DNA from: Escherichia coli
Lineage (GTDB): Bacteria > Pseudomonadota > Gammaproteobacteria > Enterobacterales > Enterobacteriaceae
Direction: 5' to 3' (one strand)
Assembly: GCF_013122565.1 (NCBI RefSeq)
Contig: NZ_CP053258.1
Length of the DNA: 64,000 nucleotides
Part shown: one piece after another, positions 1-61,356 of the stretch
How the letters are laid out: the number at the start of each line of letters is the position of its first letter
Numbering within the stretch: the stretch's first letter is position 1
Position numbers and translations under genes: made by a program
Notes under the pieces: generated by a model
What the model was told of the DNA's origin: nothing
Databases searched by the model: none
The model's input: only the letters and a program-made list of their open reading frames with translations

Positions 1-2
1 CG

Positions 3-707
3 CAAGGGCGCACGCTGATCCTCGGCGGCACCGGACCAATGGGACTGTTGGCGATTGATTATGCGCTGCATGGACCAGTTAACCCGTCGCTGCTCGTCAT
101 TACCGATACCGACAACGACAAATTGAGTTATGCGCGCAAGTACTATCCATCAGAACCGCAAACACTGATTCATTATCTCAATGCCGCCGATGCAGCATTT
201 GGTACGTTAATGGCACTGAGTGGCGGTCACGGCTTCGATGATATTTTCGTCTTTGTGCCTAATGAAGGACTGGTGACTCTCGCCTCTTCCTTGCTGGCGA
301 CAGATGGTTGCCTGAATTTCTTCGCCGGACCGCAGGATAAACATTTCAGCGCGCCAATTAATTTCTACGATGTGCATTATGCATTTACCCACTACGTGGG
401 CACGTCAGGCGGCAATACCGACGACATGCGCGCGGCGGTCAAACTGATCGAAGAGAAAAAAGTGCAGGCCGCAAAAGTGGTAACACATATTCTTGGGCTG
501 AATGCCGCGGGCGAAACCACGCTTGAATTGCCTGCCGTCGGCGGCGGCAAAAAGCTGGTGTATACCGGGAAATACCTGCCGCTGACGTCACTCACGCAGA
601 TTCAGGATCAAGCACTGGCGGCGATTCTGGCGCGTCATCAGGGGATCTGGTCCGGTGAGGCGGAGCAATACCTGCTCGCCCATGCAGAAGCAATTTCCCA
701 TGATTAA
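3..707 (+). CDS. Zn-dependent medium-chain dehydrogenase family protein, 3' portion only (5' end outside window); possibly a SorE-like sorbose-1-phosphate reductase
   Basis: Frame is open from nt 3 (..QGRTLILGGTGPMGLLAIDYAL..) to the stop at 705-707, with no start codon needed inside the window. GGTGPMG is a GxGxxG Rossmann motif as in the cofactor domain of MDR dehydrogenases. The SorE assignment rests on remembered gene neighbourhood (sor operon next to pepE in some E. coli), not on sequence identity. Confidence 0.55.
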   Translation, partial: QGRTLILGGTGPMGLLAIDYALHGPVNPSLLVITDTDNDKLSYARKYYPSEPQTLIHYLNAADAAFGTLMALSGGHGFDDIFVFVPNEGLVTLASSLLATDGCLNFFAGPQDKHFSAPINFYDVHYAFTHYVGTSGGNTDDMRAAVKLIEEKKVQAAKVVTHILGLNAAGETTLELPAVGGGKKLVYTGKYLPLTSLTQIQDQALAAILARHQGIWSGEAEQYLLAHAEAISHD

Positions 708-867
708 TCGCGCTACTTAACTCTGCATGTCGCTGGCTGGTCGCCGCGGCAACTTCGCGACCTGATGTGCGGCTGATTGCAGAAGCGGCACAATGTGCAC
801 GAGAAGGATAAAAAACATCAGCGCCTTAAGGGGCGCTCAAATTGGTAGCAAAGTGCACATTGTTTAT

Positions 868-967
868 GCCGGATGCGGAATGAAGCCTTATTCGGTCTAC
901 ATAATTTTGAAAATTCAATATATTGCAGTTATCTGGTAGGCCTGGTAAGCGTAGCGCATCAGGCAAT
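868..967. repeat. Pair of inverted REP-like palindromic units (BIME-like) between the dehydrogenase gene and pepE
   Basis: 868-900 tgccggatgcggaatgaagccttattcggtctac and 936-967 gtaggcctggtaagcgtagcgcatcaggca resemble the REP consensus (GCCGGATGCG..CTTATCCGGCCTAC) in opposite orientations. Confidence 0.5.
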
Positions 968-1088
968 GCTGTGTTTGTCATCAGTCTCAGCGCCCGGTGC
1001 AATACGTGACATCGTGAGCCATGTCAGTAAGTGGTTAAATTCGCAGTGGTAGCATTCCTTCCGTGATTTCTTGCTAACCGGAGAAGTA

Positions 1089-1778
1089 ATGGAACTGCTT
1101 TTATTGAGTAACTCGACGCTGCCGGGTAAAGCCTGGCTGGAACATGCACTGCCGCTAATTGCTGAACAGTTGCAGGGTCGCCGCTCAGCGGTGTTTATCC
1201 CTTTCGCTGGCGTAACGCAGACCTGGGATGATTACACAGAGAAAACGGCTGCGGTTCTCGCTCCGCTGGGTGTTTCTGTCACCGGTATTCATAGCGTTGT
1301 CGATCCCGTTGCCGCGATTGAAAATGCTGAGATCGTGATTGTCGGCGGCGGGAATACTTTCCAGTTGCTGAAACAGTGCCGCGAGCGCGGGCTGCTGGCA
1401 CCAATTACTGACGTGGTTAAACGTGGCGCACTGTATATTGGTTGGAGCGCAGGCGCTAACCTTGCTTGCCCAACCATTCGTACCACCAACGATATGCCGA
1501 TTGTCGATCCGCAAGGTTTCGATGCGCTGAATCTGTTCCCGCTGCAAATCAACCCGCACTTCACCAACGCGCTGCCGGAAGGCCATAAAGGTGAAACCCG
1601 TGAACAGCGTATTCGCGAACTGCTGGTCGTCGCGCCAGAACTCACAATTATTGGTCTACCGGAAGGTAACTGGATCACAGTGAGTAAAGGTCACGCAACG
1701 CTGGGTGGCCCGAACACCACTTATGTGTTTAAGGCTGGTGAAGAAGCGGTTCCGCTGGAAGCGGGTCACCGTTTTTAA
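1089..1778 (+). CDS. pepE: Peptidase E (alpha-aspartyl dipeptidase)
   Basis: ORF 1071-1778; translation from the internal ATG at 1089 ([29 protein letters not shown]...) matches remembered PepE; 229 aa. Confidence 0.9.
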
Positions 1779-8426: not shown

Positions 8427-8442
8427 CATTTTCGCTTCTGAT

Positions 8443-10167
<1,725 letters not shown>

Positions 10168-10195
10168 TTAGCGCCCTCATCAAGAGCAAAGAATT

Positions 10196-10239
10196 GCCGG
10201 ATGCGGCGTGAACGCCTTATCCGGCCTACAGTCAGCAAC
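10196..10239 (-). repeat. REP element in the aceA-aceK intercistronic region
   Basis: gccggatgcggcgtgaacgccttatccggcctac is a near-consensus REP; a REP in this spacer is a classic feature of the ace operon. Confidence 0.8.
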
Positions 10240-10251
10240 GGTTGTTGTTGC

Positions 10252-15109: not shown

Positions 15110-15229
15110 ATGCCTGGCAGTTCCCTACTCTCGCATGGGGAGACCCCACACTACCATCGGCGCTACGGCGTTTCACTTCTGAGTTCGGCATGGGGTCAGG
15201 TGGGACCACCGCGCTACGGCCGCCAGGCA
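15110..15229 (-). rRNA. rrfE: 5S ribosomal RNA (rrnE operon)
   Basis: 120-nt match to the remembered E. coli 5S sequence (TGCCTGGCGGC...GGAACTGCCAGGCAT) in reverse complement. Confidence 0.95.
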
Positions 15230-15323
15230 AATTCTGTTTTATTAACCCGCTTATCGCCGGTTAATGTAATCTGTATCAGGCTGAAAATCTTCTCTCAATC
15301 CGCCAAAACATCTTCGGCGTTGT

Positions 15324-18227
<2,904 letters not shown>

Positions 18228-18411
18228 TCACAACCCGAAGATGTTTCACTTCAGAGTTGCGAAAATTTGAGAGACTCACGAACAACATTCGTTGTTCAGT
18301 GTTTCAATTTTCAGCTTGATCCAGATTTTTAAAGAGCAAATATCTCAAACATCACCCGAAGATGAGTTTTGAGATATTGAGGTCGGCGACTTTCACTCAC
18401 AAACCAGCAAG

Positions 18412-18487
18412 TGGCGTCCCCTAGGGGATTCGAACCCCTGTTACCGCCGTGAAAGGGCGGTGTCCTGGGCCTCTAGACGAAGGGGAC
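18412..18487 (-). tRNA. gltV: tRNA-Glu (anticodon UUC) in the 16S-23S spacer
   Basis: Reverse complement equals GTCCCCTTCGTCTAGAGGCCCAGGACACCGCCCTTTCACGGCGGTAACAGGGGTTCGAATCCCCTAGGGGACGCCA. Confidence 0.95.
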
Positions 18488-18572
18488 GTATCAGTCTGCT
18501 TCGCAAGACGCCTTGCTTTTCACTTTCTATCAGACAATCTGTGTGAGCACTGCAAAGTACAGTTCTTTAAGG

Positions 18573-20114
<1,542 letters not shown>

Positions 20115-32056: not shown

Positions 32057-32109
32057 GTTCTGCGCTGTTAACGCGTAATTTACATTCAACGCCCCGTTTG
32101 TGGGGGCTA

Positions 32110-32205
32110 ATTTCTTGTCGGAGTGCCTTAACTGGCTGAGACCGTTTATTCGGGATCCGCGGAACCTGATCAGGCTAATACCTGCGAAGGGAACAAGAGT
32201 TAATC
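32110..32205 (+). promoter_or_regulatory. TPP (thi-box) riboswitch in the thiC leader
   Basis: ctgagaccgtttattcgggatccgcggaacctgatcaggctaatacctgcgaagggaa contains the conserved thi-box core (CTGAGA...ACCTGATC.GG.TAATGCC.GCG.AGGGAA); boundaries approximate. Confidence 0.85.
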
Positions 32206-32286
32206 TGCTATCGCATCGCCTTTGCGGCGATCGTCTCTTGCTTCATCCGTCGTCTGACAAGCCACGTCCTTAACTTTTTGGAATGA

Positions 32287-37879: not shown

Positions 37880-38070
37880 AATACTCAACTATGATAGAGA
37901 CGAAAATAAGAACACATGTTCTCATCTTCCAGGATGCAGCAGACTGAAGAAATTCAGACATCCCGCAACCTGCGATTATCGCAAGGTCAAGGCAAAGTCC
38001 GGTAATGGCGTTCTGAATACCAGAGATAATTCTCTGGCGAAACCCACCTTAAGGTGGGTTTTGTTATTTT
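37880..38070 (+). ncRNA. Candidate small transcript (about 190 nt) between thiH and htrC, bounded by a sigma-70-like promoter and a canonical intrinsic terminator
   Basis: Promoter-like TTGAGC-17 bp-TGTAAT at 37845-37873; terminator hairpin aacccacc-ttaa-ggtgggtt at 38041-38060 followed by ttgttatttt. Transcript ends are predicted, not observed. Confidence 0.35.
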
Positions 38071-52438: not shown

Positions 52439-52514
52439 TGGTGCTGATAGGCAGATTCGAACTGCCGACCTCACCCTTACCAAGGGTGCGCTCTACCAAC
52501 TGAGCTATATCAGC
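52439..52514 (-). tRNA. thrT: tRNA-Thr (anticodon GGU)
   Basis: Reverse complement GCTGATATAGCTCAGTTGGTAGAGCGCACCCTTGGTAAGGGTGAGGTCGGCAGTTCGAATCTGCCTATCAGCACCA. Confidence 0.95.
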
Positions 52515-52520
52515 ACATCT

Positions 52521-52595
<75 letters not shown>

Positions 52596-52711
52596 ATCCT
52601 GGAACTCGGCTACCTGATTTTCATTCTGCACTGAATATCGAGAGAAGCTCTCTTTATTCGAGCCGGTAAGCGAACTTATCGTCTCGGGCTACGCCATCGC
52701 GTGGCCGAAAT

Positions 52712-52796
<85 letters not shown>

Positions 52797-52804
52797 GGAC
52801 TTGA

Positions 52805-52880
<76 letters not shown>

Positions 52881-56344: not shown

Positions 56345-56464
56345 ATGCCTGGCAGTTCCCTACTCTCGCATGGGGAGACCCCACACTACCATCGGCGCTA
56401 CGGCGTTTCACTTCTGAGTTCGGCATGGGGTCAGGTGGGACCACCGCGCTACGGCCGCCAGGCA
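56345..56464 (-). rRNA. rrfB: 5S ribosomal RNA (rrnB operon)
   Basis: 120-nt reverse-complement match to E. coli 5S rRNA. Confidence 0.95.
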
Positions 56465-56556
56465 AATTCTGTTTTATCAGACCGCTTCTGCGTTCTGATT
56501 TAATCTGTATCAGGCTGAAAATCTTCTCTCATCCGCCAAAACACCTTCGGCGTTGT

Positions 56557-59460
<2,904 letters not shown>

Positions 59461-59653
59461 TCACAACCCGAAGATGTTTCTTACGATTCATCATCGTGTC
59501 GCGAAAATTTGAGAGACTCACGAACAACTTTCGTTGTTCAGTGTTTCAATTTTCAGCTTGATCCAGATTTTTAAAGAGCAAATATCTCAAACATCACCCG
59601 AAGATGAGTTTTGAGATATTAAGGCAGGTGACTTTCACTCACAAACCAGCAAG

Positions 59654-59729
59654 TGGCGTCCCCTAGGGGATTCGAACCCCTGTTACCGCCGTGAAAGGGC
59701 GGTGTCCTGGGCCTCTAGACGAAGGGGAC
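59654..59729 (-). tRNA. gltT: tRNA-Glu (anticodon UUC) in the 16S-23S spacer
   Basis: Identical 76-nt tRNA-Glu sequence in reverse complement. Confidence 0.95.
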
Positions 59730-59814
59730 GTATCAGTCTGCTTCGCAAGACGCCTTGCTTTTCACTTTCTATCAGACAATCTGTGTGAGCACTGCAAAGT
59801 ACGCTTCTTTAAGG

Positions 59815-61356
<1,542 letters not shown>

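Follow-up and report, generated by a model that had tools for sequence, protein, structure and literature searches.

The start of a 64-kb Escherichia coli-like stretch: probable downstream end of an ancestral L-sorbose operon, with sdhL remnants and a BIME-1 element before pepE

The L-sorbose utilisation (sor) operon and its patchy distribution in Escherichia coli are already known, published and functionally tested. The Klebsiella pneumoniae operon, sorCDFBAME, adjoins rluF and lies upstream of yjbB-metH. The operon of strain CFT073 (c4981-c4987), whose sor proteins are 82-97% similar to those of Klebsiella, conferred growth on L-sorbose when cloned into DH5alpha, and Shigella strains that carry the sor operon yet do not use sorbose have been described in the same work (PMC2831201). 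In ST131, a delta-sorE mutant no longer converted sorbose-1-phosphate to sorbitol-6-phosphate and lost its competitive advantage, and delta-sorAM mutants have likewise been used to demonstrate sor function (PMC12817954). Across 44,208 genomes, sor was present in more than 86% of the genomes of each phylogroup except A (9.6%) and B1 (12.1%), and an additional gene, sdhL, was found only in ST648 among the sequence types studied (PMC12817954). In the pathway of these genes, the mannose-family sorbose PTS SorFBAM yields L-sorbose-1-phosphate, which SorE, an NAD(P)H-dependent medium-chain dehydrogenase, converts to D-glucitol-6-phosphate; SorD then oxidises the latter to fructose-6-phosphate, and SorC acts as activator or repressor of the operon.

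Here we compare with these systems the beginning of a 64,000-nt stretch of DNA, referred to as a whole as the window. Nucleotides 1-1007 very probably represent the downstream end of a chromosomal L-sorbose utilisation operon, sorCDFBAME. The 297-nt spacer between sorE and the pepE region is, in all probability, evolutionary debris composed of the two ends of sdhL and a later BIME-1 insertion, and not a functional boundary. The features are as follows.

1 to 710, plus strand: 3' part of sorE, residues 176-409 of 409, in the frame from nt 3, with stop TAA at 708-710.
700 to 757, plus strand: 5' remnant of sdhL with a premature TAA at 718-720, located by blastn and tblastn against L008 (strain TUM12368).
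758 to 811, plus strand: 3' remnant of sdhL, its final 18 codons, with stop TAA at 809-811.
790 to 863, plus strand: long imperfect hairpin, from repeat search and folding.
851 to 983, no strand assigned: BIME-1 with family-conserved flanks, from alignment to the K-12 pgm-ybfP BIME.
867 to 900, plus strand: Y-type palindromic unit (inverted REP, CTAC at its end), from alignment and folding.
901 to 935, no strand assigned: BIME-1 L linker, with an IHF-consensus-like core AATTCAATATATTG at 912-925.
936 to 965, plus strand: Z1-type palindromic unit (REP, GTAG at its start), from alignment and folding.
1008 to 1088, plus strand: pepE 5' region common to sor-positive and sor-negative genomes, from K-12 homology.
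1089 to 1778, plus strand: pepE, dipeptidase E, 229 aa, a conserved core neighbour, from NCBIfam and Pfam.

The right-hand side of this layout is conserved. PepE matches the NCBIfam equivalog NF003642 at 357 bits as well as Pfam Peptidase_S51, and yjbB and then metH follow beyond it on the minus strand. A pepE annotation lay under every megablast match of nt 1-1900 to E. coli genomes. Inspection of the K-12 locus showed rluF adjoining pepE on its upstream side, as the original prediction, made from the DNA letters of the window, had it.

That prediction had also read the opening of the window as the C-terminal 235 residues of a medium-chain dehydrogenase with a GxGxxG motif, and guessed at SorE. 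The frame is indeed open from nt 3, and translation counts 234 residues, without interruption, before the TAA. The motif is present as GGTGPMG at fragment residues 8-14 (nt 24-44); it is the Rossmann nucleotide-binding motif and is invariant in 16 aligned SorE sequences. Pfam ADH_zinc_N matches the fragment with E=2.7e-7 and 31.0 bits, against a cut-off of 31.8 and with only half of the protein as query. Full-length SorE homologues contain both PF00107 and PF08240, and the latter, an N-terminal GroES-like domain found in all full-length relatives, maps upstream of position 1 here. A protein search upheld the SorE guess: the fragment is identical to RefSeq SorE WP_000858574.1 at 230 of 234 positions (98%) over residues 176-409, and proteins named L-sorbose 1-phosphate reductase are 95-98% identical to it in E. 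coli, 88% in Citrobacter, 86% in E. fergusonii and 81-83% in Klebsiella and Enterobacter (83% for the Klebsiella SorE P0013). More distant homologues, at about 61% identity, were found in Enterococcus and Streptococcus in a large protein collection. The fragment has the consensus residue wherever the other 15 homologues, which extend from Enterobacteriaceae to Enterococcus and Streptococcus, are invariant. The nearest solved structures to SorE are sorbitol dehydrogenases (E ~1e-9). No NCBIfam model matches the fragment, and full-length SorE reaches only sub-threshold IolM and Tdh models. A curated model specific to SorE appears not to exist, so the absent HMM match does not count against membership; it is by orthology to characterised proteins that the gene is named. 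The CFT073 operon is the orthologous locus, and the primer used to clone it, GCCAGCGACATGCAGAGTTAAGTAGCGCGA, corresponds in reverse complement to window 709-738 (PMC2831201).

Relatives of the window supply the picture of what precedes position 1. In a megablast search with nt 1-1900, 2865 of 5426 complete E. coli genomes gave full-length matches under which sorE, pepE and yjbB are annotated, while sor is absent from about 2560; the genomes without sor, K-12 included, match the window only from nt 999-1008 on. The 4.8-kb segment from sorC to sorM was found in 2866 of the 5426, essentially the same set as the genomes with sorE beside pepE. The suggestion that a sor operon ends beside pepE, together with the proposed search for a SorC-type regulator and mannose-family PTS components, was borne out in the close relatives examined: all have sorC, sorD, sorF, sorB, sorA, sorM and sorE, and L001, L011, L012, L016 and L021-L023 have the full operon with rluF. 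The upstream genes in these relatives encode a SorC-type regulator, SorD and the IIA, IIB, IIC and IID components of a PTS of the mannose/sorbose family, followed by a divergent rluF, and the gene order equals that of K. pneumoniae. Profile matches confirmed the PTS and regulator families, and SorD is a short-chain dehydrogenase that matches the sorbitol-6-phosphate dehydrogenase model at 501 bits. Judging from these relatives, an intact operon should lie just upstream of position 1, with about 5.3 kb more of sor genes and then rluF.

The visible part of sorE is cut by the edge of the window only, and its sequence has no sign of a broken gene. A contrasting reading is that sorE here is decaying or truly truncated, like sdhL, the lineage having lost the use of sorbose. 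Disruption of sorE does occur, as in the metagenomic relative L023, where the sorE call is shortened to 341 aa, and sor-carrying Shigella without sorbose use are on record (PMC2831201). The window shows no more of the gene than its C-terminal 57%, its neighbour sdhL is a scar, and, among nine haplotypes compared, two of the three sorE nucleotide changes unique to the window are non-synonymous (H222Y and D242G) against one synonymous. However, all 234 codons are open, both substitutions fall at family-variable positions, and no family-invariant residue is changed. The sdhL scar is old and common to sorbose-positive strains, and the CFT073 cloning primer covers 709-738 (PMC2831201). We accordingly give the decay of sorE a small chance of being right and retain the reading of an intact gene.

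The spacer downstream of sorE is best understood by comparison with strain TUM12368 (L008), which has between sorE and pepE a gene of 270 aa annotated as 'shikimate 5-dehydrogenase', with an ATG that overlaps the sorE stop by 8 nt. This is intact sdhL (NCBIfam NF009202, 467 bits), and sdhL with an equal 8-nt overlap is found in Klebsiella, Enterobacter and Citrobacter. In the window, too, an sdhL remnant begins with an ATG placed in an 8-nt overlap with the end of sorE (ATGATTAA). Window 600-757 matches L008:2100-2257 at 90.5% and window 758-827 matches L008:2959-3028 at 88.6% (blastn); at the protein level, SdhL residues 1-21 and 254-270 match the window at 81% and 82%, respectively (tblastn). 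The first 19 and last 18 sdhL codons have thus been kept, and the junction at 757/758 corresponds to an internal deletion of 701 bp (L008:2258-2958). The deleted 701 bp are present in just 177 of 5426 E. coli genomes, and sdhL-intact genomes make up about 6% of the sor-positive E. coli; the deletion junction of the window is common to all eight of the other sor-positive haplotypes compared. At the Klebsiella locus, sdhL is intact and overlaps the sorE stop, and pepE is missing, whereas the window has the sdhL scar, the BIME-1 and then pepE. In ST648, sdhL adjoins the sor operon, and the window has its two ends at the equal position as a non-coding scar. The occurrence of sdhL with the same overlap in outgroup genera points to the scar as the derived state. 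That sdhL was an ancestral gene of this locus and that a single shared deletion left the scar is, taken alone, likely. A wider proposal is that sdhL was an ancestral eighth sor gene, coupled translationally to sorE through ATGATTAA and tied to sorbose catabolism, of which most E. coli retain the shared 701-bp scar; we put this forward tentatively and consider it somewhat doubtful.

The sdhL tail is also part of the hairpin that the original prediction placed after the dehydrogenase gene. This structure is real: folding of nt 790-863 yields -26.7 kcal/mol (z=-4.17), a stability that none of 200 shuffles reached. Its outer arms, 790-800 and 853-863, are complementary at 11 of 11 positions, and an inner 6-bp hairpin spans 820-837. 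The tail of sdhL provides the left arm, while inserted sequence and the left flank of the BIME make up the right one. The first 23 nt of the insert pair with the sdhL tail to give the inner hairpin. In strain PapRG-04-4 the outer stem is mismatched. A T-run follows the hairpin on the minus strand only, so it does not form a canonical sor terminator, and no canonical plus-strand terminator was found between sorE and pepE. The fold of 705-1010 as a whole is marginally better than its shuffles (z -1.8). A search of Rfam over 600-1900 returned nothing above threshold, with sub-threshold matches of naRNA4 and ES036 to REP material.

The two inverted REP-like units that the prediction had noted next to the hairpin are real as well: a Y unit at 867-900 (CTAC) and a Z1 unit at 936-965 (GTAG), with a 35-nt linker between them. 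BIME-1, also called RIP or RIB, is an IHF-binding REP pair. The segment 851-983 aligns end to end, through flanks, Y unit, L linker and Z1 unit, with the BIME between pgm and ybfP in K-12; on this alignment, the REP pair is a complete BIME-1. Elements of this class combine one Y with one Z1 unit, occur as single copies about 140 bp long and are polymorphic among strains (PMC3333891, PMC1187871), and their long linker is conserved and often contains an IHF site (PMC3333891). The window element resembles them in its inverted CTAC/GTAG units, its long IHF-like linker, its single copy of about 130-140 bp and its strain polymorphism, and differs from a typical BIME-1 in that its Y unit is degenerate. 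This unit has accumulated four substitutions and a 1-nt deletion relative to the canonical K-12 copy, and it folds at -10.7 kcal/mol versus -21.3 for the K-12 copy. The Z1 unit has one difference from its K-12 paralogue and folds at -12.3 kcal/mol (z -2.6). The linker contains the 17-mer AATTCAATATATTGCAG, found a single time in the window against an expectation of 0.01, and the K-12 paralogue has exactly the same core AAATTCAATATATTGCA; the putative IHF core, as read from the letters, has one mismatch to WATCAANNNNTTR. A promoter-like match in the linker was at chance level. The RefSeq record of MG1655 contains no repeat features at the stretches examined and no independent BIME label.

The same element recurs throughout the species. 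Among the matches listed, every E. coli genome has from 21 to more than 40 places that match this stretch of 116-163 nt, and full-length BIME paralogues occur in sor-negative genomes too; the window copy is intergenic. The orthologous copy is present in about 2680 genomes, roughly the sor-positive genomes minus the 177 with intact sdhL. TUM12368, the sdhL-bearing sor-positive haplotype examined, has about 9 nt where the window has 828-990, and the BIME is missing there. IS1397 of strain 103 had been expected in the sorE-pepE BIME; this candidate was rejected, as the insertion sequence is located in the REP spacer between pepE and yjbB.

Taken together, the hairpin and the BIME-1 could be a selected 3'-end module of the sor operon, serving as an attenuator or mRNA stabiliser, or as an IHF-bound insulator from pepE. 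Published work credits REPs and BIMEs with terminating transcription, stabilising mRNA and binding IHF (PMC3333891, PMC1187871), and here a strong hairpin (z -4.2) and foldable REP units follow a gene for which no canonical plus-strand terminator was found up to pepE. The BIME haplotype is moreover carried by about 2680 of some 2866 sor-positive genomes. This high frequency is, however, explicable by descent from one haplotype. The decayed Y unit, which folds less stably than its K-12 counterpart, the modest z of the 705-1010 fold, the stem mismatch in PapRG-04-4, and the missing BIME in the examined sdhL-bearing haplotype and in other genera all speak against selection on the module, which we consider rather unlikely. 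Debris from sdhL followed by an inserted BIME-1 remains the preferred account of the spacer.

The REP pair had been offered as the kind of arrangement seen at accessory-gene boundaries, and here the coordinates disagree. On the right, homology to K-12 restarts at nt 1008, 81 nt before the pepE ATG, which places the breakpoint at 1007/1008; the BIME has already ended by then, some 25 nt further left. On the other side, K-12 homology stops 35 nt upstream of the start codon of rluF. A sor-positive genome (L001:6682-13007) has 6326 bp between the two breakpoints, and K-12 has 95 nt. Because the BIME stops short of the breakpoint and is missing from the sdhL-bearing sor-positive haplotype examined, we regard it as an independent insertion. 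The 95 nt of K-12 have no detectable similarity to any sor-positive locus compared; only 11-12-mers were found when looking for a sor remnant within them or for these 95 nt in outgroup loci.

An accessory island had been predicted to begin just outside the window, and of this claim the presence/absence of sor among E. coli stands. The word 'island' is an overstatement given a normal GC content, no mobility genes and a locus common to four genera. The rluF-sorCDFBAME arrangement was found in the yjbD...yjbB-metH neighbourhood in E. fergusonii, Citrobacter freundii, Klebsiella variicola and Enterobacter hormaechei; in Mangrovibacter the sor operon is at a different location. GC ranges from 0.47 to 0.57 over the sor segment of L001 versus 0.48-0.57 in its flanks. 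In L001 the interval from rluF to pepE has no annotated integrase, transposase, other mobility gene or tRNA, and the junctions have no meaningful flanking direct repeats. Identity to E. fergusonii is 80.1% for sorE, 84.6% for yjbB and 95.1% for metH, and the corresponding values for Klebsiella are 74.5, 79.9 and 83.9%. Atypical composition, mobility features or direct repeats, and absence from the site in related species are the marks of a genomic island, and none was found at this locus. The adjacency to rluF in four genera, the normal GC and the lack of mobility genes therefore argue that the locus is ancestral and not a mobile island.

A horizontally acquired sor island between rluF and pepE, with the REP pair as its insertion footprint, would still account for several observations: the presence/absence polymorphism (2865 genomes with and about 2560 without, of 5426), the replacement of the K-12 site by 95 unrelated nt in place of a clean deletion, and the enrichment of BIME-1 in strain-specific 'loops' (PMC1187871). 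Against it, the rluF-sor adjacency extends over the four genera, and the divergence of sorE from the outgroups is just moderately above that of yjbB. GC is unremarkable, mobility genes and flanking direct repeats are absent, and the supposed footprint lies some 25 nt from the breakpoint and is absent from the sdhL-bearing haplotype examined. The phylogroup distribution, too, fits loss in A and B1 (PMC12817954). Horizontal acquisition as an island accordingly has a very small chance of being correct. The K-12-like state most likely reflects lineage-specific loss of the ancestral sor locus in phylogroups A and B1; since the origin of the 95 nt in K-12 is unexplained, we infer the direction of the event, gain or loss.

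The window itself looks like a natural, recombinant and unsampled E. coli-like lineage, as far as sequence comparison can tell. Complete E. coli genomes reach at best about 98% identity to it across 25 kb and 98.6% across nt 1-1900, and sampled E. coli strains share only about 97-98.6% identity with the haplotype, which has two unique visible amino-acid changes. Of the first 1100 positions, 6 have a letter that, among nine haplotypes, only the window shows. When the GTDB representative genomes were searched with a 40-mer that contains a window-unique SNP, no exact match was found. Contigs with an identical MetH differ from the window at 162 of 8433 positions, mostly third codon positions. Artificial recoding was entertained, with MetH identical in protein and different at 92 sites in DNA, and was rejected because SorE has amino-acid changes and only 6 of 1100 positions are window-unique; the third-codon-position pattern is a natural one.

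Two side observations concern the genes beyond pepE. The YjbB protein of the window is the commonest allele. Its exact MetH protein was found in 36 blocks, on contigs about 98% identical to the window in DNA.

For the biology of the organism, the strain is probably able to use L-sorbose, a trait with a patchy distribution in E. coli that is frequent in phylogroups other than A and B1 and has been tied in a recent study to the competitive fitness of high-risk clones. Beyond annotation these observations carry little weight, and their use lies in the recognition of the sdhL scar and BIME-1 insertion in the sorE-pepE spacer and of an ancestral locus probably lost in K-12, which helps the correct reading of sor presence/absence maps. 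If the account of sdhL given here is true, the published view of this gene as an ST648-specific addition would be reversed, and the sdhL scar, with the BIME-1 that came later, would constitute a new 3' untranslated region of the sor operon.

At the 3' end of sorE, the last gene of the L-sorbose (sor) operon, the window retains the remains of the shikimate-dehydrogenase-like gene sdhL, left by a deletion; they are listed here with other features.

Features of the window (positions in nt)
700-811, sdhL deletion scar, gene remnant
1785-1805, Y-like hairpin in the pepE-yjbB spacer
1818-1856, canonical Z2 REP in the same spacer
15112-20114, rRNA operon with spacer tRNAs
32109-32209, TPP riboswitch
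37902-38062, sroH
52442-52880, cluster of four tRNA genes
56347-61356, rRNA operon with spacer tRNAs

In the scar, 19 codons survive from the start of sdhL and 18 from its end, with 701 bp lost; the gene is intact in 177 of 5426 complete E. coli genomes as well as in Klebsiella, Enterobacter and Citrobacter, and it overlaps the sorE stop by 8 nt in every one of these cases. A 2025 paper describes sdhL as an ST648-specific feature (PMC12817954). pepE is absent from the sor locus of the outgroups (L003:10374-10913; L007:10226-12754), yjbB directly follows sdhL in Klebsiella, and a DUF2058 gene separates sorE and yjbB in E. fergusonii. The 95-nt sor-less site in the rluF-pepE spacer of K-12 (L002:3915-4009) has no detectable similarity to sor+ loci or to the fetched outgroup loci.

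Both spacers flanking pepE gave sub-threshold Rfam matches, namely ES036 (CssrF) sRNA at 903-943 (27.3 versus 37.6 bits), running from the linker into the first part of the Z1 unit of the BIME-1 between sorE and pepE, and naRNA4 in the pepE-yjbB spacer (1785-1856; 46.4 versus 59.5 bits), which in E. coli strain 103 (L009) harbours IS1397. The rRNA operons, TPP riboswitch, sroH and tRNA cluster are ordinary landmarks.

At 8427-10245, aceK directly follows iclR without an intervening arpA/espL4-type gene, a junction found in 1308/5426 genomes. The 3' segment of aceK is unusually divergent: among complete E. coli genomes, the closest match reaches 95.8% identity at the junction and 93–95% across 8448-10245.

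Over positions 1-25000, no complete E. coli genome exceeds ~98% identity to the window. The MetH protein matches a rare allele exactly, yet its DNA differs at 92 sites, 88 of which are third codon positions. These comparisons suggest an Escherichia coli-like lineage that has not been sampled.
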